This document shows positions 348 through 60,146 of a stretch of DNA of 64,000 bases, in pieces. Position 1 is the first letter of the stretch. Each line of letters opens with the position of its first letter. The notes below the pieces were generated by a model. It was not told the origin of the DNA. It saw nothing but the letters and a program-made list of their open reading frames with translations, and did no database searches. Origin of the DNA: a virus; the IMG/VR virus record IMGVR_UViG_3300017744_000003, positions 9,000 to 72,999 of that record; one strand, 5' to 3'. Both the position numbers and the translations under genes were made by a program.

Positions 348-1067
348 ATGGCTATACCCTTTTGGAAACTAGAAGAAGCCTTTATGGGCATCTTCACGGG
401 AAAGGTAATGCAAGATAGGAATGGTCGAAAAGTCGTTGTTCCTGTCTTCATAGACTACCCTGACATTGAGGAGTCACCTGAGCGAAGGTTTCCTTCTATC
501 GCTGTACTTTTCCAAGGAATGACTCCGGACACCGAAATGTATAACTCCGATATGGACAGAGTGGTAGACGTAGATTATACGACTTCACCTCCTACGTTTG
601 TTACGAGGCGTATGGCTGAGTTTTACGATATAACGTATGAGGTCACCTCATACACTCTTAGCGCCTGGGAAGATAGAGAACTGACTCGTTGGGTAGAGTC
701 GCGTCTTTTACCAAGAGACGCTCTTGTCGTAGGTCAAGATTCTTATCATATTTTTAGAGAATCTTTCTCGGTGGCAGACTCTGTTGACGTAGATACAGTG
801 ATCTATGAGAAGTCTTGGACGTTTAATATTAAGGCAGATATTGAAGATACGGACAACGATAACTACCAAAAGGGTGTAAATGAGGTTAGAATACATTCTA
901 ACGTAGTCAGAACTGAGACAAAAAAAATAGAATCGAATGGTACATCTCGTACCCAATATGTATATAATGCCCCCAAGTCTGCTGACAATGCAGAAGACGC
1001 GGAAAAATTATTGCACCGCGTCATAGCTTTTGATGACCAAAATTACTGGTTTCCTAATAAAAAGTGA
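348..1067 (+). CDS. Putative tail terminator / sheath-capping protein (Pvc16/DUF4255-like position)
   Basis: 239 aa directly upstream of the sheath. The FPSIAV and YDITYEVTSY patterns resemble tail-terminator folds. Assignment is mainly positional. Confidence 0.55.
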   Translation: MAIPFWKLEEAFMGIFTGKVMQDRNGRKVVVPVFIDYPDIEESPERRFPSIAVLFQGMTPDTEMYNSDMDRVVDVDYTTSPPTFVTRRMAEFYDITYEVTSYTLSAWEDRELTRWVESRLLPRDALVVGQDSYHIFRESFSVADSVDVDTVIYEKSWTFNIKADIEDTDNDNYQKGVNEVRIHSNVVRTETKKIESNGTSRTQYVYNAPKSADNAEDAEKLLHRVIAFDDQNYWFPNKK

Positions 1068-1075
1068 GGTGAAGT

Positions 1076-2902
1076 ATGGGTTATAACCGCCCAGATGTTT
1101 ACATTGAAGAGATTCTAACTCCCGATACTGCTCCTAGCGGTGTCTCAACAAGTATTGCGGCTTTTGTTGGTGCTGCGCAACGTGGACCAGCTAATACTCC
1201 TATTTTTATAGATAGTTTTAGTTCGTTTATCCGTATCTTTGGTGCGGCGGTCACTAATGAATCTATGTACTACAGTGTTCGTTCGTTCTTTGAGAACGGC
1301 GGAGCTGCTTGTTACATTGTTCGTGTAGTTGATATTAGCGCTACAGAAGGTGGTGCTCCCGCTGTGATTGCTGCTAACGAGACTATCCCTTCTGCGGCGG
1401 GCGGTGATACACTCAAGTTCTCAGCGGGATATCGAGGTAAGTTTAGTTTCGGTCCCAAGGGGAAAGATCTTAACGTCAAGATTTCTGCCAACGAAAGTTT
1501 CACCCTAAGCGGTTTAAGCGTTGGTGCGGCAATAGGTGACACTTCCTTAAAACTGACTTCCTCAAATGGTCTTATTGCAGGCGATATTATTAAGGTAGTT
1601 GTTACTGAAGGTGATTTTTACTTAAAGGTAGTAGGTACCAGGACTGTAGTAGAAGCGGGTACTATTGTACGTTATGTAGATCTTGCTTCTCCTATTGAGT
1701 CTGCTTTTACTTCATTAGCCTCGGCGATAACTCTTCTCGCATACGATATTGATGTGATTGAAGACGGAGAGACTCTTGAGTCTTTCTCCCGTTTAACAAT
1801 GAACCCCGACTCTGACCAGTACTTTGAGACTGTTATTAACGATGAACAAGTTGGTTCTAGGTTCGTTAAAGTAGAAGACCTCGGACTTGGTCAACTCTTG
1901 TCTAACTCAAAAGAACTAGTAGCCTCGGTTACTTATAGTCTTTCAGATAATGGCGAAGATGAGTTGGCAGGTGTTACGATTGCCGATGATATTCTTGCGG
2001 GTGCTTTACCCTCTCTTGAGGCAAAAAGATCAGTAAACCTTCTATGTGTACCACCTTCACTAAGTGACTCGGGTATCGTTGCGGTTGCTGATATGCCAGT
2101 TCTCCATGCAGGTATGCTTGAGTTCTGTGGTAACCGAATGGACATGTTCGCTATTCTTGACGCTCCAAGAGCACTCACTGCTGACGCTAGCGCATCGGGT
2201 AGTGTTGGTGAGTACCGAAAGAATACTTTGGGCGTGGACACTTATTGGGGAGCACTTTACTTCCCACAGATTCGTGTTCCTTTGAAGTCCGGTAGTACTC
2301 AGTTACTTGATATTCCTCCAAGTGGCGCAGTTGCTGGTCTGTATTCAAGAGTAGATTCTATTCCTGCACCTAGAGGCGGTATTTCTACGGCTCCCGCAGG
2401 TCACGGTGACTTTGGTTCACTTCGTGGCGTGAGCGGTACTTCTCTTGAAGTGAGTGATGCAAAGCATGGTGATCTTAACGTGATTGGTGTTAACTGTATC
2501 CGTGTTGTTGATCGTGCTGAAGGTGCTTTACCAAGCGCACTTGTCTTGGGGTCAAGAACACTTAGCAGTACCCTTGACTTCCGCTACATCAATGTACGTC
2601 GAATGATGACTTTTATCGAGAAGAACGTAAAGTCTATTGGAGAGCAACGACTCTTCCGTAACAATGGCCCACAACTATGGTCAGAGCTTACAGATGAGAT
2701 TACTTCTTTCCTTACGCTCAGGTTTAACTTAGGTGAACTTGCAGGTAATAATCTAAATGAAGCGTTCTTCGTCAAGATTAATTCTGAGACAAACACGGCT
2801 GAAAATATCCGCCAGGGTATCTTGGTGGGTGAGATAGGTATTGCCTTACTTCGCCCTGCGGAATTTGTTATCTTCCGCTTCAGCCAGATTCAATCTAACT
2901 AA
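1076..2902 (+). CDS. Contractile tail sheath protein
   Basis: N-terminal RPDVYIEE and TSIAAFVG..QRGP; internal ALYFP, PPSGAVAG and GSRTLS..FRYINVRR; C-terminal IGIALLRPAEFVIFRFSQ. GAGGTG SD. Confidence 0.97.
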   Translation: MGYNRPDVYIEEILTPDTAPSGVSTSIAAFVGAAQRGPANTPIFIDSFSSFIRIFGAAVTNESMYYSVRSFFENGGAACYIVRVVDISATEGGAPAVIAANETIPSAAGGDTLKFSAGYRGKFSFGPKGKDLNVKISANESFTLSGLSVGAAIGDTSLKLTSSNGLIAGDIIKVVVTEGDFYLKVVGTRTVVEAGTIVRYVDLASPIESAFTSLASAITLLAYDIDVIEDGETLESFSRLTMNPDSDQYFETVINDEQVGSRFVKVEDLGLGQLLSNSKELVASVTYSLSDNGEDELAGVTIADDILAGALPSLEAKRSVNLLCVPPSLSDSGIVAVADMPVLHAGMLEFCGNRMDMFAILDAPRALTADASASGSVGEYRKNTLGVDTYWGALYFPQIRVPLKSGSTQLLDIPPSGAVAGLYSRVDSIPAPRGGISTAPAGHGDFGSLRGVSGTSLEVSDAKHGDLNVIGVNCIRVVDRAEGALPSALVLGSRTLSSTLDFRYINVRRMMTFIEKNVKSIGEQRLFRNNGPQLWSELTDEITSFLTLRFNLGELAGNNLNEAFFVKINSETNTAENIRQGILVGEIGIALLRPAEFVIFRFSQIQSN

Positions 2903-2914
2903 GGAGTTTAGACA

Positions 2915-3433
2915 ATGGCGATTTTATCAAAAGACGTATATAGAGGCTTTAAGTTCTCAGTAACACTAAGTGGTGGTCCGTTCTCTCTTACGAGAGCCGC
3001 CTTCCAAAAGGTGACTGGTATGAAGTCTGCTGTAGAAGTAGTAGAATATCGTGAAGGTAATATGCCTGACCGTATGGAGAAGATAGCAGGTATGATGACC
3101 TATGATACCATCACTCTTGAGCGAGGTATCTCTTATGACGATGACTTTAACGCCTGGATGAAACTAGTGTGTGATGGGACTCAAGCAAATGGGGAGATTC
3201 CTGCTTCTAGTCCTACACCGGACGTTGGCGCAAATAGTTATCGTTGTGACGTAGTAGTTCAACTACATGACAAACAAGGTCGTGCTGTAAAGAAGTATAC
3301 TCTTCTCGACGCTTGGCCTAGCGAATACACTATTGGTGACTTTGACGCTACATCTAACGATGTCGTTATCTCATCTCTAGTGCTTCAGCACCACGGTATT
3401 AAAGAGGAAGACCTCTTAGAGCAAGACGCATAA
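2915..3433 (+). CDS. Tail tube protein (T4 gp19-like / eCIS tube family)
   Basis: FKFSV, FQKVTGM, VEYREGN, ITLERG, AWPSEY..GDFDATSNDV. AGGAG SD; follows the sheath. Confidence 0.95.
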   Translation: MAILSKDVYRGFKFSVTLSGGPFSLTRAAFQKVTGMKSAVEVVEYREGNMPDRMEKIAGMMTYDTITLERGISYDDDFNAWMKLVCDGTQANGEIPASSPTPDVGANSYRCDVVVQLHDKQGRAVKKYTLLDAWPSEYTIGDFDATSNDVVISSLVLQHHGIKEEDLLEQDA

Positions 3434-3485
3434 GACATACATACTATAAAATAGTTTTCAACAACTTATAAAACAAAGGTTAGTC

Positions 3486-4313
3486 ATGATTACTGACAAC
3501 AATAAAGTTATTCTCCCTATCGGTGTCGAAGTTGATGGGGTACGTTATCGAGAAGTTACTTTGGACGAGATGACAGGTATCGACGAAGAAAACTTGTCTT
3601 CTCGCAAAGTGCGTAACAATGGGGCAAAGGCAATCACGCTTCTCCTAAGACGGTGTATACAGTCTATTACAGGTGTTATAGAAACAAAGCGTGACCCTTT
3701 GTCCCTAATAGATGATCGTATTGTTCGCAATATGTTTGTAGCAGACCGAGACTTCTTGGTCTTATGTATTAGAGCACTTAGTGGGAACCCAGAGGTGTTA
3801 TTAACACCTGAATGTCCTGCATGTGGTTCTAGTTGTGAAAGAATGATAGATGTTCGTGAGCTTGATGTTTATGAATGGGAAGATGACGTTCCTGTTGAGT
3901 TAAAGATTGAGTTACCCCGTGGCTTCTATAGCAAGACCACAAGTAAATATCACAAGGATGTAGTTTGGCAGTTTCCTAAAGGCTTGGGACAAGAGCGTAT
4001 TGCGTCTATGCCTCAAAATGAGGCGGGGACAAATCTTATCGCTTTAGGTCTTAAAGAAGTAGAAGGTCTTGAGACTTTACCTATGCCGGATGACGTTCGT
4101 AAGTTAAGCGTCCGAGATCGAAATGCTTTTGCTCAAGCTATCTTAGAGAACGCAGTTGGCGTAGATAATAAGGTAGACATTGACTGTCCTAATTGTGGCA
4201 ACGAATTTGAGGTAGAGGTCAACACCGTGGGTTTTTCCAATTTGGGTCAACAACAGACCCAAAAGGAATCAAAGCCTGGGATGAGTGGGCGCAAACTTCG
4301 GAAAAGGCGTTAA
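3486..4313 (+). CDS. Tail assembly chaperone (G form) with two CxxC motifs
   Basis: Lies between tube and tape measure. EMTGIDEE, DRDFLVLCIR, CPAC and CPNC. Confidence 0.8.
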   Translation: MITDNNKVILPIGVEVDGVRYREVTLDEMTGIDEENLSSRKVRNNGAKAITLLLRRCIQSITGVIETKRDPLSLIDDRIVRNMFVADRDFLVLCIRALSGNPEVLLTPECPACGSSCERMIDVRELDVYEWEDDVPVELKIELPRGFYSKTTSKYHKDVVWQFPKGLGQERIASMPQNEAGTNLIALGLKEVEGLETLPMPDDVRKLSVRDRNAFAQAILENAVGVDNKVDIDCPNCGNEFEVEVNTVGFSNLGQQQTQKESKPGMSGRKLRKRR

Positions 4314-4456
4314 TAAGAACAGTAGTTGCAGTAGCAGAGCGATGGCGTTGGAACAGATATGATATACTTAGCTTACCTTCTCGACAGAGGGCAATATACT
4401 TAGAGTTATACGAAGAAATTACAGACAAAGAGCGTGAGGCTTCTCGTAGGAGGTAG
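3486..4456 (+). CDS. Tail assembly chaperone GT form made by -1 programmed frameshift at G GGT TTT (4229-4235)
   Basis: XXXYYYZ slippery heptamer in the correct phase. The -1 frame is open 4235-4456 (73 aa, FQFGSTT...WRWNRYDILSLPSRQRAIYLELYEE...RRR*), has no ATG of its own, and ends 2 nt before the tape measure ATG. Confidence 0.85.
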
Positions 4457-8689: not shown

Positions 8690-11077
8690 ATGGCAGGGCC
8701 TAATCTAAGGAAACCGGCTGAAAAGCGTCAAGAGGGGGTAGACAGAGATGCTCTGTCAAAAGATAACGTTGCGATCGTCCAAGAACCTAGAGAGTTACTA
8801 AGTAACAGTACAGCAAATCCTAAATATACTCCTCGTAAAGTGAGTGCTCAAGTCCAAGAACTTGGAGATAACTCGGTTGACTTACCCTTTCACTCACTTA
8901 TAGGTCACACAGAACTGACTCCCTACTTTTGGATAAGACCAAAGAAAAGACCTATCTCACCCGAGCTTGACTTTGTTAACCCTCTAAGAAAGAACATTAA
9001 GTCGATAAACTTGACAAATACCTACGGTAAGTTCCCTACGGTAGAATTTGAAATGTATATACCGGAGTTTCGACAAATAAGTACTACAATGGTGGTGGGT
9101 GACACTATAAGAAAGCGTGACCCTGGAAAGATTATAGATTACTTCAAGTTGGGTGAATCTTTTAGTGTAAAGTGGGGTTATGTAAGTAACCATACTGAAT
9201 GGTCTAGTTTTAGGGTGATTGATCGACAGGTTAAATTTGAAAACGGCACTGCTCTCTTGACGGTCAAAGGTCGAATAGGATCTCGTTTAAGTGCTACGAT
9301 TACTTCAGACGTATTCTCTGCTTCTTATGGAAAGACCACTTTTGATCAGATAGCAGGTCTTGTTGACATGAAAGTTAACTATAGAGGACTGCTTGACGAA
9401 GAGTATGAACAACTTCTTAAGCAAGAGAATACTGTTTTGTTTTCAGGAGCAAATACACTAGCAATTGGCGCATACTTAGAAGCTACAAAGGCAGACGTTG
9501 AGTTATATTTAGATCCCATAGACAATGAAATGAGGCTTACAACACCCTTTAAATATGAGATGATTAAGAGAGGTACTAAGCCTTACAAGATGACCTATGG
9601 TTACCCTACGTCTAATATTGCTTCAATAGATGTAGAGACCAAATACCCTAAGAAAAAGGGGACGGGGATACGGAAATCTAAACCTTTAAGTCAGAAGCCT
9701 AGTGGAACTGCTATTATAAACCGTAAGGCGGGTACTGCCCAATATGTTCAAGCAGGTGTTATTAAATACACGCTTAATGGCGAAGAGAAGCGGTTTGAAG
9801 TGGGTAACCTTACAGACTATAATAAAAAATCTTTAAACGATAATGGAGACTTTGACTCACTAGTGGGGCTAAAGTCTTTAGAAAATGGACGGTTCCCCCC
9901 TAGTGATGGTTATAAAGTTTATTTTGTAGAACAATCTACCAACAGAGACTACGGAGACTATCTGATTGTAAGAAACATAAGTCTTCCCACAGAGTTAACT
10001 TTAGAGCGACGAAGTGTAACTAATACAGAATATCTATTCTTACTTTCACAAAGTGAACAAAATAAACTATTTGTTTCGACAAATAACGTAATAAATGATG
10101 ACGGTCTTCTTGAGGTTACTGTTTATAAACGTAATGTAGACTCTAGTGTAAATATTCAAGAAGACGTAAAACCAGAAACAGATGAAATGGTCTTTGAAAC
10201 TACCATCATTGAAGCGACACCTAAAGGGGGCGATACAGAAGAAGGTGATGAGTTAGAGGACAAGTGGGTGAGTGTGGCGGGTAAACAAACGTACATTGAC
10301 GCTCAACACTACGCATCTAATAAGAATAATACAGGTTTACTTACTAGTAGTAAAGTTACCGCCTTTGAAGAACAAGTAGCCGAACTTAAAAAAGAAGCCC
10401 AAGCTAAGGGAGAGGACTTTCGAGTAAGTAAAAAATCGCTAGGCAGTACACTCCTCTATCAACTAGAGGAGAAGACTCAAGTTAAAGTGCGGACTGATCC
10501 TAGTAATGCAAAAGAAGATGATGACGGGGGCAAGGGTTCTTCGGAAAGTGCAAGTCCTGACGCTAGTACACCTGCACCTCCTTTTAAGCCAATAGCTCAA
10601 CAAAGTGGTGCTCCTCGTAGAGCCCGTAGGCTTAAAACAACTAAGGTTCGTATTCGATTAAAAGCCGGAGACTGGACTATGCGTGTTGGTCGGATTATTG
10701 AGATAGTGGATATTCACAAGAGTCTTAATGGTTTCTACTATGTGTTTTCAGAAGAGCACAATATAGGTACGGATGGTTTTCATACTGAAATAGAATGTCG
10801 TAAAGCATCTAAAAAGGCTGTAAACAGTTACGGTAAAACGATTAGGCGAAAAGATTCTAAGAAGAAAGAAAAGGGAGGGACTCGTAGCGCAAAGTCAGGA
10901 GAGAGTGTAGACGTAAAGAATGCTACTGATAAAACGATAGTTATCGATGTTGATCTACGTGAAAAGAATAGGTTAGATGCCCAAAATAAGGCTAAAGAAA
11001 AGCAAAAAAAATTAGAAATACAAAAAGCTAATAACAATACTATTGAACGCTTTTCAAACATACCGGAGGCAACATGA
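8690..11077 (+). CDS. Baseplate hub protein (gp27 / P2 gpD-like) with a large insertion
   Basis: VKWGY near the N-terminus; C-terminal GRIIEIV..LNGFYYV..EEHNIGTDGFHTEIEC. Lies between the LysM and spike genes. Confidence 0.7.
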   Translation: MAGPNLRKPAEKRQEGVDRDALSKDNVAIVQEPRELLSNSTANPKYTPRKVSAQVQELGDNSVDLPFHSLIGHTELTPYFWIRPKKRPISPELDFVNPLRKNIKSINLTNTYGKFPTVEFEMYIPEFRQISTTMVVGDTIRKRDPGKIIDYFKLGESFSVKWGYVSNHTEWSSFRVIDRQVKFENGTALLTVKGRIGSRLSATITSDVFSASYGKTTFDQIAGLVDMKVNYRGLLDEEYEQLLKQENTVLFSGANTLAIGAYLEATKADVELYLDPIDNEMRLTTPFKYEMIKRGTKPYKMTYGYPTSNIASIDVETKYPKKKGTGIRKSKPLSQKPSGTAIINRKAGTAQYVQAGVIKYTLNGEEKRFEVGNLTDYNKKSLNDNGDFDSLVGLKSLENGRFPPSDGYKVYFVEQSTNRDYGDYLIVRNISLPTELTLERRSVTNTEYLFLLSQSEQNKLFVSTNNVINDDGLLEVTVYKRNVDSSVNIQEDVKPETDEMVFETTIIEATPKGGDTEEGDELEDKWVSVAGKQTYIDAQHYASNKNNTGLLTSSKVTAFEEQVAELKKEAQAKGEDFRVSKKSLGSTLLYQLEEKTQVKVRTDPSNAKEDDDGGKGSSESASPDASTPAPPFKPIAQQSGAPRRARRLKTTKVRIRLKAGDWTMRVGRIIEIVDIHKSLNGFYYVFSEEHNIGTDGFHTEIECRKASKKAVNSYGKTIRRKDSKKKEKGGTRSAKSGESVDVKNATDKTIVIDVDLREKNRLDAQNKAKEKQKKLEIQKANNNTIERFSNIPEAT

Positions 11078-46544: not shown

Positions 46545-47927
46545 ATGAGAGTCTGTTTAAGTGGAGTTGTTAGAGAAGAGCGCCTAGATAAAATATTGGA
46601 AGCTAAGGTTAGGAGTGTTGTTTTAGATTACTCGGTTGTTAAAGATCTCAGCCTAGATTGGTTTGAAGATAACCGTGACCAGTTTGATTGTATTATGTTG
46701 GAGTACGATCTAACTGGTGCGTGGTCTAGGATGAAGTACCTTTGGGGAGGCGAAACAGATCGTGTTCTCAGAGCTATAGAAAAGCATGGTAGTTTGTCAA
46801 ATGCGAAAGAACACCTTCTTTCTAAGCTAGATCAACGAGTGACTAGTTATCTAAGTTTCTGTAATAATATTGAAGGCTTGATTGATGTTATTTGGCTTCC
46901 TTTCCTACCTAATATGGGTTGTTCTAGGTGGGAAAAGTTGTTGAAAAGTACCAAGATAGGTTACACCTTATGGTCTTTCAACGAGATCGATACTATTATT
47001 CATAACTATTCTTACGTAGGTATACCGAGTTCGTTTGATACCGAAGTCGTGAAGGTTGAAATGAAGCCTTATATTGCCTCTCTAAAGTCGTTTGGTATTA
47101 AAACGCATAGGTGGGGTAGGGTAGACAAGGAAACGCTCCTTACGGGCTTATTCTGGAGTGCTTCAAGTTCTAACTGGTTAAGTGGTTCTAAATACGGAGT
47201 CACTTTTGAATACGTAGGAAACCTAAAACTTGTTACACATCATGGGTCTAAAGGCTCAGGTAAGTCAGTAAGAAACAAGCTCAAGTCTAAATGTGAAACT
47301 TTATCCCTTGACCATTGTCTATTGATGAGCGATGACCGTAGGACTGTTGACCTGTGGAATCTCTCTCAGTGGGAAGCCTACTCAACAGAAGCAAACCGAG
47401 TAGGTGGTTACTGGACAAAGAGGGAGGCAGCAGTGAGTAAAGATCAGTTACCTGTAGTTAACAATCAGACAGAATCAAGCCTTGCAACTTCTAGTCAGTT
47501 TGGTTCATACTTACGGACTTGTAATTCATGTTACCTCAGTGCAAATTGCCCTGCATTTGAGCCCGACAATAACTGTAGAATATCGACAACCCCCAAGGTG
47601 GACACGCCCGAAGACGTTCAGCAACTTATCAACAAAGTTATTCAGATACAGGGTGAGAGAGTCTTGTTCGCTTCTATGTCCGAAAGGATTCAGAACGCAG
47701 GACTCAACCCCGAGGTATCTTCTGAGATGGAGACTTTGACGAAGTTAATGAAGGACGCCAGGGAAATTGCTTCGCCTATAGGTGAGGACGAGGTTTTAAT
47801 AAAAGCTAAGGGATCTGGAGTGATCTCGCGTTTATTCGGCGGTTATGGAAGATCGGGTGGAGGTTCTAAACCATCTACGTCAGAGAGAATCATAGATATC
47901 TCTCCTATGGAGTCAGAAGATGACTAA
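46545..47927 (+). CDS. Degenerate TGT/DpdA-like barrel fused to a Cys4 C-terminal domain
   Basis: KTHRWG...WSASSSNWLSGSKYG resembles the H.G...SxDS(S/T)W..G..YG signature. C-terminal CNSCYLSANCPAF...C. Confidence 0.5.
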   Translation: MRVCLSGVVREERLDKILEAKVRSVVLDYSVVKDLSLDWFEDNRDQFDCIMLEYDLTGAWSRMKYLWGGETDRVLRAIEKHGSLSNAKEHLLSKLDQRVTSYLSFCNNIEGLIDVIWLPFLPNMGCSRWEKLLKSTKIGYTLWSFNEIDTIIHNYSYVGIPSSFDTEVVKVEMKPYIASLKSFGIKTHRWGRVDKETLLTGLFWSASSSNWLSGSKYGVTFEYVGNLKLVTHHGSKGSGKSVRNKLKSKCETLSLDHCLLMSDDRRTVDLWNLSQWEAYSTEANRVGGYWTKREAAVSKDQLPVVNNQTESSLATSSQFGSYLRTCNSCYLSANCPAFEPDNNCRISTTPKVDTPEDVQQLINKVIQIQGERVLFASMSERIQNAGLNPEVSSEMETLTKLMKDAREIASPIGEDEVLIKAKGSGVISRLFGGYGRSGGGSKPSTSERIIDISPMESEDD

Positions 47928-53724: not shown

Positions 53725-53910
53725 ATGGTATATGAACAAGCACTAAAGTTCATAAACAAAGAAGTATTTGGCATAACTAAAGATCAGCTTGTTATAAGAG
53801 GTAGGCTAACTGAGGTAAATAAAGACGGTTACGCCATCATAGTTGTTCATAACACAATCCCTGTTAGGGAATATAAGACGCATATAAAATATGTGTTCCC
53901 GCAGAAATGA
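53725..53910 (+). CDS. Small hypothetical protein (possible Sm/SH3-like beta fold)
   Basis: 61 aa; ATGA overlap with the methyltransferase gene. Confidence 0.5.
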   Translation: MVYEQALKFINKEVFGITKDQLVIRGRLTEVNKDGYAIIVVHNTIPVREYKTHIKYVFPQK

Positions 53911-55238
53911 CTAGAAAGAAAATTAATGTGGATACTACCAAAAACCTTACCCATATTTCCCTCTGTGCAGGATACGGGGGGATTGATCTCGGACTTTCAA
54001 GAGCTATCGGAGCAGTTAGAACAGTCTGTTTTGTGGAGATCGAAGCCTTCGTCATCGAAAACTTGGTCGCGAAGATTGAAGCGGGACTGCTCGACACCTC
54101 GCCTATTTTCACAGATCTTAAAGCCTTCCCTTGGGAACTCTATAATGGAAAAGTGGATATCCTCAGTGGAGGGTTCCCTTGCCAACCATTTAGTGCCGCA
54201 GGAAGACGTAAAGGAAGCGAAGATCCTCGACACTTGTGGCCTTACATCACAGACGGAATCAAGCGCCTTGGAAGACCTTCCATTGTTTTCTTTGAAAACG
54301 TCGAGGGAATCATCTCCTCAAAACTCAAGGGAGACGATTGGGCAGATCCGGAAGGAACGTCTGTTCTGCACCATGTCCTTAAAGAGTTGGAACGCTTGGG
54401 TTACAAAGCAACGGCGGGAGTATTCAGTGCGCGTGAAGTTGGCGCGCCACACCAAAGAAAGCGAGTTTTTATTCTTGGTGTCAGAGATGACTTCGGAGAG
54501 TCGGGATTGGAATTTATATCGTCAATGCTCAGAGGTACAGGAACAGATGCGAAATTGGCCTACCCCGCATCAAGAGGCGCAGAACAGTACGCATGGGAGC
54601 CAAGGAGAGTTACAGTGGGCAACGCCGGCACAAGCAGATCACAAACTGTATCACATGAGCATCGAAGCTATGACAGTGAGATTAAATACAAAGAGACAGT
54701 TGGGTCTGCCAGGTCATGTGCATCAAACAGAACAGAAGCGTTGGAGGCGATCAGTTTCGATAGATCGGAAAGGCCCTTGTCCGAAAGCACCGCAAGAACA
54801 AAAGGAAGTAAACTGGGCAACGCCGATGGCGGGGACAAAGGATCACATGGGGTCGAGTTTAGAATATTACCAACGCAGGTCACAAATAGGGAAGCAAGTG
54901 GACTTGAATGGACAGGTGATGTTGGAGAAGGATTGGACCACACCAATCAGCAGGGATTGTTACGAGATTGTGATGAACCACCAAATACCAATCCGAAAAG
55001 ACGGGAAAACGAGGTTAGATACAATGCCCAGGCAGGTACACCACGAAGAGGGTTACAAGGGGAAACTGAACCCACGTTGGGTGGAGACGCTCATGGGGCT
55101 ACCTGTGGGTTGGACTATGCCCAGTTGTCAGATTCCTGTGATAATAGAACAGATGAGTTACGACTGCTTGGAAATGGAGTCGTTCCCGCCACAGCAGAAA
55201 GAGCGTTTAGAACCCTGTGGAGAGCCTTATGCCAATAA
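53907..55238 (+). CDS. C5-cytosine DNA methyltransferase, alpha chain (motifs I-VIII and X, lacking IX)
   Basis: SLCAGYGG (I), GGFPCQPFS (IV), FENV (VI), PHQRKRVF (VIII), LLGNGVVP (X). Confidence 0.92.
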   Translation: MTRKKINVDTTKNLTHISLCAGYGGIDLGLSRAIGAVRTVCFVEIEAFVIENLVAKIEAGLLDTSPIFTDLKAFPWELYNGKVDILSGGFPCQPFSAAGRRKGSEDPRHLWPYITDGIKRLGRPSIVFFENVEGIISSKLKGDDWADPEGTSVLHHVLKELERLGYKATAGVFSAREVGAPHQRKRVFILGVRDDFGESGLEFISSMLRGTGTDAKLAYPASRGAEQYAWEPRRVTVGNAGTSRSQTVSHEHRSYDSEIKYKETVGSARSCASNRTEALEAISFDRSERPLSESTARTKGSKLGNADGGDKGSHGVEFRILPTQVTNREASGLEWTGDVGEGLDHTNQQGLLRDCDEPPNTNPKRRENEVRYNAQAGTPRRGLQGETEPTLGGDAHGATCGLDYAQLSDSCDNRTDELRLLGNGVVPATAERAFRTLWRALCQ

Positions 55239-55536
55239 TCAAGTCAGAGACATAGCGCAGCCAACAGAAGAACCTTGGCCTACGCCTAACGCTAGAGACT
55301 TTAAGGACTCAATAAGTACTGTACCTCCATCTGTTACCGTCACAAGAGGTTATTCTTTAGGGCAGGCCGTCGCTAAAGAAAATATTAAAGATTGGCCTAC
55401 ACCTTCTGCTTCACAAAGGGGTGACACACTAGAGACGTATGAACGAAGATCTAGGAAACGAGAGGAACAAGGGTTAATGCCGTTTGCCCCCGTGTTACAA
55501 GTAGCCGTTGAAGCGTCAGAGAAGAGTAAGAAATGA
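53926..55536 (+). CDS. Overlapping +1-frame methyltransferase partner (motif IX-like plus six W-x-T-P modules); true start uncertain
   Basis: 536 open codons containing LNPRWVETLMGLPVGWT and WPTP/WATP/WTTP repeats. Its stop is ATGA-coupled to the next gene. Confidence 0.8.
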   Translation: MWILPKTLPIFPSVQDTGGLISDFQELSEQLEQSVLWRSKPSSSKTWSRRLKRDCSTPRLFSQILKPSLGNSIMEKWISSVEGSLANHLVPQEDVKEAKILDTCGLTSQTESSALEDLPLFSLKTSRESSPQNSRETIGQIRKERLFCTMSLKSWNAWVTKQRREYSVRVKLARHTKESEFLFLVSEMTSESRDWNLYRQCSEVQEQMRNWPTPHQEAQNSTHGSQGELQWATPAQADHKLYHMSIEAMTVRLNTKRQLGLPGHVHQTEQKRWRRSVSIDRKGPCPKAPQEQKEVNWATPMAGTKDHMGSSLEYYQRRSQIGKQVDLNGQVMLEKDWTTPISRDCYEIVMNHQIPIRKDGKTRLDTMPRQVHHEEGYKGKLNPRWVETLMGLPVGWTMPSCQIPVIIEQMSYDCLEMESFPPQQKERLEPCGEPYANNQVRDIAQPTEEPWPTPNARDFKDSISTVPPSVTVTRGYSLGQAVAKENIKDWPTPSASQRGDTLETYERRSRKREEQGLMPFAPVLQVAVEASEKSKK

Positions 55537-55805
55537 AAGACGAATCTGTGCTTCTGCCTAGAGAGTATAGCAAGTGTATACTTGAGGTTAAGAATGGTGT
55601 TGTACATTATAACCAAGAGTGTGTTATCGAAGTGTTAACCAACGATTTCCTTAAAAGTATATTGGCAGGTGACTTGACTTGTAATGCAGATACCATAGAA
55701 GAATCTGCCTATCTTCATGCTATAGAATGGTTTGACTATAATATAGCATGTGCGTATATGGGCAAATATACACCTGTTTATGTAGTACAAGAGGAGGAAG
55801 AGTGA
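55533..55805 (+). CDS. Hypothetical phage protein
   Basis: C-terminal AIEWFDYNIACAYMGKYTP motif recalled from small phage proteins. Confidence 0.65.
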   Translation: MKDESVLLPREYSKCILEVKNGVVHYNQECVIEVLTNDFLKSILAGDLTCNADTIEESAYLHAIEWFDYNIACAYMGKYTPVYVVQEEEE

Positions 55806-58802: not shown

Positions 58803-60146
58803 TTAAAAGTCTAAGTCTTTAAACAAAGGTAACACTTCAAGATCCACTTCTTCGTTCTTGGTTTTTTCTATATCTGCTATGGCTGACCAATGGTCTATAC
58901 GAACTTTAGCGATCTCTGCGTATTCCTCTTCACGCTCAATGCCGAACCCTTCTACGTCTTCAAGCGCACAGGCGCACAGAGTAGTACCTGACCCTAGAAA
59001 CGGTTCAAGGACTGTACCCCCTGGGGGCGTGACCATACGAACTAGATATCTCATAAGGTCTATAGGTTTAACAGTGGGGTGTACATTAGCTCTTTTAGAA
59101 TCCGTCTTAGATTCAAGCCCTGCTTCACGCTCTTTCTTGTTCGCTTTAGTCGTATAGAAGAAACGACTTGCGCCCCCTGTATCTCCATAGCCTTCACTTC
59201 CCTTGGCTTCCCATTTACCAATTGTGGGTTTGCCGGCAACTCCCCATGCTCTCGACTTACTGCCTGCGGTTCCACTCTTTTGAACACCGCTCTGTTTATC
59301 TAGTTCTTGGGCTGACTCTGCATCGAGCATTATATTAGCAGGCCATCTGCCCTTCTTCCAATCATCTTTTACAGATCCAATTCTTGCAGACTTATTATGA
59401 AAACCCCGTTGTGCTTCAGTGACCTTGTTTGCTTGAGGGGTCACACCTGTATTTTCACCTTTTTGAAGAGGTATACGAGTTGCATCTATATTAATACCAC
59501 CAACACCCCATTTAAGAACATTATCTGCCACTGTTCCTTCGGGTGGTTTCCTTATTAAAATGATGGGTTCATAAGCGGGTTTTAATGCAGTACCATAACC
59601 TACCCATTGTTTTGATCTATCATCTCTTGATATGTATTCACCGACGGGGTTTGATTTGAGCTTGTTCTTCTCTTCTGTATCACTCGCTTGATAACGACTA
59701 GCTGTTGGAATAGCTTTACCTCTATTTGAGTGACCTATCTTCTTATCGATGCCTAGAGCTACGTTGTGACTTTTTGGAAAACCACTTCCATATATCCACA
59801 TGATAGTATCTCGTATATCGAAACCGGCTAACCGCAGCGATATACTCATGAGGTCTTGAGTACGTGTCCCTGCAAAGACCACACCATAAGCACCAGGCTT
59901 CATGACTCGATAGACTTCTCTCCACAGGTCGGGCTGTGGTACAAAAGAATCCCATTCCTTATTCATGAAGCCTTTTTTGTTCTTAGGTGTCCAAGTATCT
60001 CCTGTTGACCATGCTGTTAAACATTCTGCCATCATCTGGGGTGTCACTTGACTAAGACCATAGGGTGGATCAGTGACAAGTGCGTCAAAAGAGTTGTCCT
60101 CTACTGCCTTAAGGACTTCAAGACTATCTCCATTTAGTATCTTCAT
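58803..60146 (-). CDS. N4-cytosine/N6-adenine DNA methyltransferase (beta class)
   Basis: VTDPPY, WIYGSGFPK, ALKPAYEPI, GRWPAN, HPTVKPI.LM, EPFLGSGTT. Confidence 0.95.
   Translation of the reverse strand: MKILNGDSLEVLKAVEDNSFDALVTDPPYGLSQVTPQMMAECLTAWSTGDTWTPKNKKGFMNKEWDSFVPQPDLWREVYRVMKPGAYGVVFAGTRTQDLMSISLRLAGFDIRDTIMWIYGSGFPKSHNVALGIDKKIGHSNRGKAIPTASRYQASDTEEKNKLKSNPVGEYISRDDRSKQWVGYGTALKPAYEPIILIRKPPEGTVADNVLKWGVGGINIDATRIPLQKGENTGVTPQANKVTEAQRGFHNKSARIGSVKDDWKKGRWPANIMLDAESAQELDKQSGVQKSGTAGSKSRAWGVAGKPTIGKWEAKGSEGYGDTGGASRFFYTTKANKKEREAGLESKTDSKRANVHPTVKPIDLMRYLVRMVTPPGGTVLEPFLGSGTTLCACALEDVEGFGIEREEEYAEIAKVRIDHWSAIADIEKTKNEEVDLEVLPLFKDLDF

Follow-up and report, generated by a model that had tools for sequence, protein, structure and literature searches.

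M.AquI is a C5-cytosine DNA methyltransferase split into an alpha and a beta chain that are encoded by adjacent genes, and the SPR and phi3T methyltransferases of Bacillus phages are single polypeptides in which motifs VIII and IX are separated by short recognition units in a variable tandem array, the recognition domains of these enzymes having been tied experimentally to distinct targets. In the single-chain C5-methyltransferases whose structures have been solved, motif IX packs on motif X. A further arrangement is that of M.EcoHK31I, where, according to the available part of its description, the alpha polypeptide carries motifs I-VIII, the recognition domain and motif X, and a beta polypeptide with motif IX is encoded wholly in another frame of the alpha gene (PMC2836561). 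Here we examine a locus in a 64,000-nucleotide (nt) stretch of viral DNA (positions 9,000 to 72,999 of IMG/VR virus record IMGVR_UViG_3300017744_000003; the whole stretch is referred to below as the window) that we read, with a probability of about 0.68, as coding for a C5-cytosine DNA methyltransferase of two polypeptides, each translated from its own frame of the same DNA. Such a two-chain enzyme of the M.EcoHK31I kind is supported by conservation, by patterns of selection and by a structural model.

Two open reading frames (ORFs) on the same strand occupy the locus (Table 1), frame A (alpha) and frame B (beta). The stretch that they share, 53926-55238, is 1313 nt long and frame B continues for 298 nt beyond the stop of frame A, as a preliminary description made from the letters alone had stated and as the list of ORFs and the shuffles reported below confirm. 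Frame A matches PF00145 with residues 15-199 only (E = 1.1e-35, 124.1 bits against a cut-off of 22), scores 105 bits against TIGR00675 (cut-off 100.65) and also matches the chains of M.HhaI and M.HaeIII in the PDB; its motifs I (G.G), IV (PC), VI (ENV), VIII (QR.R) and X (GN.V) are invariant or almost so in 64 frame A sequences. A disordered linker takes the place of the target-recognition domain and motif IX between motifs VIII and X of frame A, and motif IX is found in frame B, which by itself had no match in Pfam, in NCBIfam or, by sequence, in the PDB (profile search to E <= 1). The methyltransferase is complete only when both frames are counted, neither of them holding the full set of motifs I-X alone.

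Table 1. Features of the two-frame locus, in window coordinates (position 1 is the first letter of the window; aa, amino acids; pLDDT, predicted local distance difference test)
Feature	Position	Strand	Remarks
Frame A (alpha) ORF, 443 aa	53907..55238	+	motifs I-VIII, WEPRRV motif, disordered linker, motif X
Frame B (beta) ORF, 536 aa	53926..55536	+	+1 relative to A; N-terminus MWILPK, passenger leader, WxTP modules, motif IX, tail
Purine-rich AGAAAGAAAA	53913..53922	+	lies 4-13 nt ahead of the start pair; putative ribosome-binding site for both frames
Overlapping starts ATGTG	53926..53930	+	ATG for B (53926-53928), GTG in A (53928-53930); the B Trp codon covers the A start
Catalytic core, frame A	53961..54470	+	frame B mostly passenger here
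Motif I LCAGYGG, frame A	53961-53981	+	
Motif IV GGFPCQPFS, frame A	54168-54194	+	
Motif VI ENV, frame A	54294-54302	+	
Predicted helix, frame B residues 152-188	54379..54489	+	pLDDT ~96; invariant W155, R169; modelled against A residues 152-185
Motif VIII QRKRVF, frame A	54453-54470	+	
Conserved frame A motif YPASRGAEQYAWEPRRV	54561..54611	+	E231, R234 invariant; WPTPH of B overlies it as passenger reading
Passenger linker, frame A residues 236-404	54612..55118	+	no predicted structure, free of stops
Module region, frame B	54616..55062	+	W.TP at 54616, 54814, 54934; B third codon position most variable
Motif IX-like KLNPRWVETLMGLPVGWT, frame B	55063..55116	+	13 invariant columns in 81 sequences
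Motif X LLGNGVVP, frame A	55164..55187	+	
Tail, frame B	55239..55536	+	single-coded; two W.TP (55276, 55393); conserved C-terminal helices

Chance does not account for two open frames of this length. When the synonymous codons of one frame were permuted, keeping its protein and codon usage (5000 shuffles), and stops were counted in the other frame, shuffling of A left frame B with 11.1 stops on average, compared with the single one observed (a TGA within ATGA at 53908, upstream of the ATG of B), and none of the 5000 shuffles was as low. Reciprocally, frame A has no stops where 7.1 were expected upon shuffling of B1-194 (fraction 0.0004) and none where 7.9 were expected upon shuffling of B195-400 (0/5000). 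The control frame (+2) had 32 stops under shuffling of A against 31.4 expected, i.e. it shows no avoidance of stops, which rules out chance or composition as the cause of the open frames. One might still suppose that a single frame is functional and that composition, or some nucleotide-level constraint, keeps the other open, and indeed both products are known from sequence rather than from experiment and public annotation mostly records one frame only. This we consider very improbable, given the behaviour of the control frame, the protein-like variability of codons in each of the two frames and the division of invariant methyltransferase motifs between them.

The same layout is found in other phages. 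A megablast search of the locus against phage records gave no match, nor did a scan of viral contigs with the single B protein, and a scan starting from an alignment of B then succeeded. With patterns for motif IX of B, at least 600 stretches of viral contigs matched, 532 were confirmed and 80 loci were kept, 74 of which fit the strict motif IX pattern; the other six (L006, L044, L048, L054, L066 and L071) were left out of the layout counts, and the loci of phages Miramae (L003) and phi1026b (L004), also outside the strict pattern and the counts, were read by eye. In 73 of the 74 loci both frames are open from motif IV onwards, A as far as motif X and B to the end of motif IX, the exception being L061, and since the loci were picked by frame B alone, the open frame A in them is an independent result. 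The two frames overlap by a median of 1205 nt (range 803-1719), and around motif IX the third frame is open for a median of just 39 nt.

Several cultured phages have the arrangement as well. In a translated search of phage records both frames matched phage C75C1 at the same place, frame A (3001..4443 in that phage) with 99% coverage, 33.5% identity and E = 3e-61, and frame B (3008..4387) with 81% coverage, 28.5% identity and E = 4e-25. In Paenibacillus phage Bloom a second "DNA cytosine methyltransferase" coding sequence is annotated nested in the first, in the +1 frame, and a paper on 48 Paenibacillus phages, in its available part, lists two DNA-cytosine methyltransferases as adjacent and leaves nesting undiscussed (PMC6070908). 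Burkholderia phage phi1026b has A at 986..2287 and B from 990, with five W.TP, one WPTA and LNPAFACWLMGWPTWW, and in Synechococcus phage Ssp-JY39 (L088, 1711-2913) both frames are present, the annotated "hypothetical protein" at 1784..2899 being the frame B product and the C5-methyltransferase frame (motifs I-VIII and X) being left unannotated. Conversely, the annotations of C75C1 and phi1026b hold frame A only. Gene callers and annotation rules forbid long overlaps on the same strand, so that one frame is usually dropped.

In phi1026b, frame B runs without a stop into a ParB-like partition gene, in frame, forming an ORF of 706 aa (990-3110). In the related phages vB_E253, vB_PR2b and PhiBP82.1 a "chromosome partitioning protein" is annotated beneath the methyltransferase match, which suggests that a beta-ParB fusion ORF has been called there. 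A different long +1 ORF covers motifs IV-VIII of the C5-methyltransferase genes of Roseobacter phage CRP-821 (L087, 1649-2128), otherwise a canonical single-chain enzyme, and Streptococcus phage Javan565 (L085, 1592-2272), and matches phrog_16143 "DNA methyltransferase" with E-values of 6e-10 and 3e-56, respectively; alternate-frame ORFs in phage C5-methyltransferase genes may therefore reach beyond the family studied here.

Proteins resembling B are common. A protein search (E <= 0.001) returned 1881 called proteins, the closest 85% and 69% identical, and the best 120 of these contained no Pfam domain. Searched against the representatives of 50% identity clusters, a profile made of 81 B sequences had 25805 matches at E <= 0.001, of which 10155 reached E <= 1e-10 and 2331 reached E <= 1e-30. 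In the ESM Atlas B-like clusters are named "hypothetical protein" and are about 89% viral. A full-text literature search found no description of dual coding across this family; subscription journals, REBASE and supplementary files were beyond its coverage, so a prior description is possible.

Which frame evolves as protein was assessed in codon alignments of 63 viral loci together with C75C1, Bloom and the window (66 non-identical loci in total), in which variability was compared across the three codon positions; L019 and L025, both cut by contig ends, L061 and duplicate sequences had been dropped before the entropy analysis. The DNA is divided into stretches in which one frame is selected as protein and the other is mainly held free of stops. 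Over motifs I, IV and VIII, the YP..G..QY.WEPRRV motif (A215-238) and motif X, it is the third position of A that varies most; in motif VIII, for example, the entropies of A positions 1, 2 and 3 are 0.33, 0.14 and 1.24 bits. The third position of B is the most variable in the first ten codons of that frame (B1-10, MWILPKTLPI; 0.61, 0.38 and 0.99), the frame B signal is weaker over B21-40, and it is clear over B224-399, where the B third position again varies most, so that selection over the module region follows frame B. Motif IX gives the sharpest frame B signal of all (B1 0.39, B2 0.20, B3 1.23), and in the B leader W155 and R169 are invariant in 81 sequences. Outside its selected stretches each frame looks like a passenger and is predicted to be disordered. 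The earlier view that both frames are coding is thus borne out by an openness far beyond chance, by alternating selection and by a layout found in 73 of 74 viral loci.

In most loci the start codons of the two frames overlap. The first ATG of B lies upstream of motif I of A in 56 of 61 loci (median 35 nt), 58 of 66 loci have a B that starts as M(T|DT)W[IVL][IVL]P, and in all of these 58 the A-frame codon over the B tryptophan is a start codon, namely GTG within ATGTGG in 41 and ATG within ATGACATGG or similar in 17; 38 of the 58 have no further upstream ATG in the frame of A. The position of this family-conserved start of A corresponds in the window to the GTG at 53928. A purine motif of the Shine-Dalgarno (SD) type stands ahead of the start pair in 43 of 58 loci, and AGAAAGAAA, similar to the motif of the window, lies upstream in L018, L035, L042 and L059. 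These sequences suggest that one ribosome-binding site feeds both frames, and such sharing would account for the openness of B right from the beginning of the gene. In three loci (L014, L027 and L077) B is open across the start region and has its first ATG downstream of motif I, an MW-type start being absent; initiation of B may there use a non-ATG codon or another mechanism. An A_AAA_AAC heptamer near the B start, considered as a possible frameshift site, is confined to some loci (any in-phase heptamer is found there in 15 of 67) and does not occur in the window.

A shorter beta could instead begin just before the modules, the upstream part of frame B remaining untranslated, and the preliminary description had indeed proposed the internal ATG at 54547 (frame B M208), which in the window has an AGGA upstream of it. 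Most of B1-190 evolves under selection in frame A, as this would predict, and in Bloom the open frame of B begins about 200 nt inside A. The internal ATG proved unconserved, however, M208 being present only in the window and in P0002 among 21 aligned sequences, and the conserved ATG is instead the 5' one (MWI[IL]PK) that overlaps the A start. Untranslated DNA would also be expected to gather stops (3.5-7 of them), yet in the great majority of loci, as counted above, the ATG from which B is open precedes motif I; furthermore B1-10 is selected in frame B, and almost all of the best 150 matches of the B profile begin at their own residue 1 on the MWI position. We therefore regard an internal start as rather unlikely, and return to a beta that would be translated from its conserved 5' ATG.

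A pattern search places W.TP in frame B at residues 211, 231, 297, 337, 451 and 490, which agrees with the six modules counted previously; the first of them (WPTPH, B211), however, is an alternate reading of YP..G..QY.WEPRRV in A that is unconserved in homologues, and it is not a selected module, since selection there follows frame A. Across homologues W.TP occurs 0-6 times upstream and 0-4 times downstream of motif IX, whole modules are present or missing in the 21-sequence alignment, and module types recur at differing places among proteins (e.g. W-A-T-P-N-T-M-D...R-K-G-R...N-L-R-E-Q-V). Most modules end in L-x-x-Q-V, close to the G/D-x-L-x-x-x-V-like ending first reported, and the variable content of whole modules fits an expandable array, as had been proposed. 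In the same proposal the modules would give one enzyme several specificities, which might serve anti-restriction.

The segment that follows the modules in frame B resembles, by pattern, what we take to be the consensus of C5-methyltransferase motif IX, and it ends 47 nt before motif X in frame A. Relatives with other gene arrangements carry the same elements. In mycobacteriophage Miramae the first gene, gp79, ends soon after motif VIII, and a single frame, the +1 frame of gp78, encodes LPTP modules, LNAAFSEWMMGW and motif X (LIGNGVV); in gp73 of Mycobacterium phage Fancypants motifs I-VIII, PTP-type modules, motif IX and motif X lie in one chain. The phrog_1008 profile aligns to frame B of the window over its positions 36-279 and to motif X of frame A over 293-320. 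From these observations it follows that the module region and motif IX belong to a methyltransferase.

Over the tail of B the other two frames carry 6 and 10 stops, so that only B is open there, and the entropies in the 16 loci that have tails (67 aligned columns) are 1.41, 1.24 and 1.65, the B second position being the least and the third the most variable. Nearly invariant tail residues in the 21-sequence alignment include P493, S496, Q497, R498, G499, Y505, R512, G516, F520 and L524. Among the more distant loci, most have a tailless B that ends 5-35 nt before the stop of A. The stop of B in the window (TGA, 55534-55536) overlaps the ATG at 55533 of the next ORF, a small one (55533-55805) with a homologue fused in frame to the end of a B-type protein in P0031 and partly in P0004.

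In an AlphaFold2 prediction of A from 64 sequences, residues 11-210 have a block-mean pLDDT of mostly 82-98 (with a dip to 51-64 over 91-110), residues 236-420 are below 50 and have no secondary structure, and the helix at 427-442 is confident (pLDDT 96). The unstructured part noted before is therefore predicted to be disordered indeed, although it covers some 185 residues and not about 230. B alone, predicted from 81 sequences, has a mean pLDDT of 51.8 and is mostly below 50, its confident parts being the helix at 152-188, the motif IX helix and the C-terminus, where the tail is predicted as helices with pLDDT of about 95. When A1-240, A385-443 and B145-420 were modelled as a complex, the score was 0.90 (0.90, 0.90 and 0.91 in three runs), against 0.01 for the best of three controls. 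The mark attained here was also attained by 58 out of 80 solved complexes and 2 out of 110 mismatched pairs, a comparison that is rough only, since the modelling used alignments made for this analysis and three chains. Between runs, at least 51% of the contacts are shared. In the model B378-411, with motif IX, contacts A404-428 (motif X), A230-238 (WEPRRV) and A48-61, N382-W385 of B being set against the WEPRRV motif, and B333-348 (the last module) and B145-190 (the helix) contact A152-185. Co-folding, which the preliminary description had called for, thus lends support to an association of motif IX of B with motif X of A.

Since motif IX of B lies so shortly before motif X of A, and since the order of motifs I-VIII, modules, IX and X is that of single-chain relatives such as Fancypants gp73, one may also consider an alternative in which ribosomes read A as far as motif VIII, shift by +1 into B for the modules and motif IX, and shift by -1 back into A for motif X, producing one single-chain enzyme. 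Such double frameshifting, also raised in the preliminary description, now appears quite unlikely. An in-phase X_XXY_YYZ heptamer between motifs IX and X is present in 4 of 75 loci and not in the window (+1 signals and RNA structures were not searched for systematically), and frameshifting gives no reason for the A linker, the B leader and the B tail to be open, although the unused parts of both frames stay so in nearly all viral loci. Nor would it explain the conservation of B1-10 and of the B tail at the protein level, or the overlap of the B ATG with the start of A.

Two separately initiated polypeptides thus remain the reading that we favour, and several observations weigh against it. Translation of both frames is argued from sequence. 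The MW-type start of B is absent in 8 of 66 loci and an obvious SD-like motif in 15 of 58, and the shared start may not apply to the copy in the window, because A has there an upstream ATG (53907) coupled to the preceding ORF, whose stop it overlaps (ATGA). Selection over most of the first ~190 residues of B follows frame A, so that the case for translating B from its 5' end is made by the lack of stops and by the ten conserved codons at its beginning. The codon-position entropies are descriptive and are not a formal two-frame analysis of non-synonymous and synonymous substitution rates. As to structure, the partner pLDDT is at least 49 and the partner's own fold is rated uncertain, and the complex score may reflect likeness to single-chain enzymes, in which motif IX is known to pack on motif X, so that it supports binding without showing it. 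The WxTP modules have low confidence in both models, and a role for them in DNA recognition is a guess.

If the two-polypeptide reading is correct, alpha would supply the catalytic core that binds S-adenosylmethionine (motifs I-VIII), the WEPRRV motif and the motif X helix, with the core joined to motif X by a linker of about 170-185 residues that has no structure of its own and would exist solely because motif X can be reached only if frame A remains open. Beta would start at the ATG that overlaps the conserved GTG start of alpha, run over the catalytic region as a largely passenger leader, and then provide modules of about 40 residues (WxTP...L..QV) in place of the target-recognition domain, followed by motif IX and, in this phage lineage, by a C-terminal extension. 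Motif IX of beta would pack on motif X and WEPRRV of alpha, rebuilding the small domain of a normal C5-methyltransferase. Both proteins would thus be made, presumably from one ribosome-binding site, and would assemble, both being needed for activity and the modules possibly reading the DNA.

A bolder statement, to which we give slightly less than even odds, is that a very large family of phage genes (about 10,000 clusters at 50% identity, E <= 1e-10) consists of obligate two-in-one genes, encoding proteins of about equal length from overlapping ATG and GTG starts served by one ribosome-binding site, the two frames covering 0.8-1.7 kb with alternating functional and passenger segments, the products assembling into one enzyme whose DNA-reading part is a freely expandable array of ~40-residue WxTP modules. 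If so, few conserved same-strand dual-coding arrangements of double-stranded DNA phages would be longer, and these genes would be a natural example of a subunit ratio being set by out-of-frame dual initiation. The overlapping starts suggest a way to couple the synthesis of two subunits. In practical terms, cloning from the start of alpha would lose the beta ATG, 2-5 nt upstream, and would probably yield an inactive enzyme if beta is required; should the modules set specificity, they would make a compact tool with which cytosine methylation could be retargeted. That selected and passenger segments alternate across more than 1 kb, and do so in very distant phages, makes these genes, in addition, a rare natural data set on how two proteins can be encoded by shared DNA.

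The surroundings of the locus are those of a tailed phage, with genes for a tape measure protein, baseplate, tail fibre, DNA polymerase and ribonucleotide reductase, a DpdA-like gene and a second methyltransferase. The phage has no close cultured relative, its polymerase being at most 34% identical to any phage record. The regions 46545-47927 and 58803-60146 (minus strand) hold, respectively, a match to DpdA-like queuine tRNA-ribosyltransferase (phrog_887, E = 1.2e-22) and the second DNA methyltransferase (phrog_67, E = 3.8e-61), and with these besides the two-frame locus the phage has several DNA-modification functions.

Among single-chain enzymes, Fancypants gp73 has the same motifs in the same order, including the NPRL..F.EWMMGWP.GW form of motif IX, and differs in having all of them in one frame and one polypeptide. 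The single-chain form probably came first, judging from these sequences, gp73 then being like the ancestral state. Miramae gp79/gp78 shares with the locus a division after motif VIII and a second ORF in the +1 frame that overlaps the end of the first, but gp78 keeps modules, motif IX and motif X together and the overlap is at most about 180 nt, compared with the whole gene here. By description, the variable tandem array resembles that of the SPR and phi3T enzymes, whereas the modules here, putative recognition units of about 40 residues, are encoded in a second frame. The closest likeness is to M.EcoHK31I, compared by description and not by sequence and as far as the available part of that description reaches: here too alpha holds motifs I-VIII together with X, and beta, with motif IX, lies in an alternate frame within the alpha gene. 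The present locus differs in that the overlap takes in nearly the whole gene, beta in the window even extending 298 nt beyond it; in that beta is as long as alpha and has a start that overlaps or closely adjoins that of alpha (2-5 nt from the alpha start codon), whereas the beta of M.EcoHK31I is small and nested; in that the module array is on beta and the corresponding stretch of alpha is a disordered passenger, whereas M.EcoHK31I has its recognition domain on alpha; and in that the arrangement is a trait of many phage loci, conserved in a very large family.

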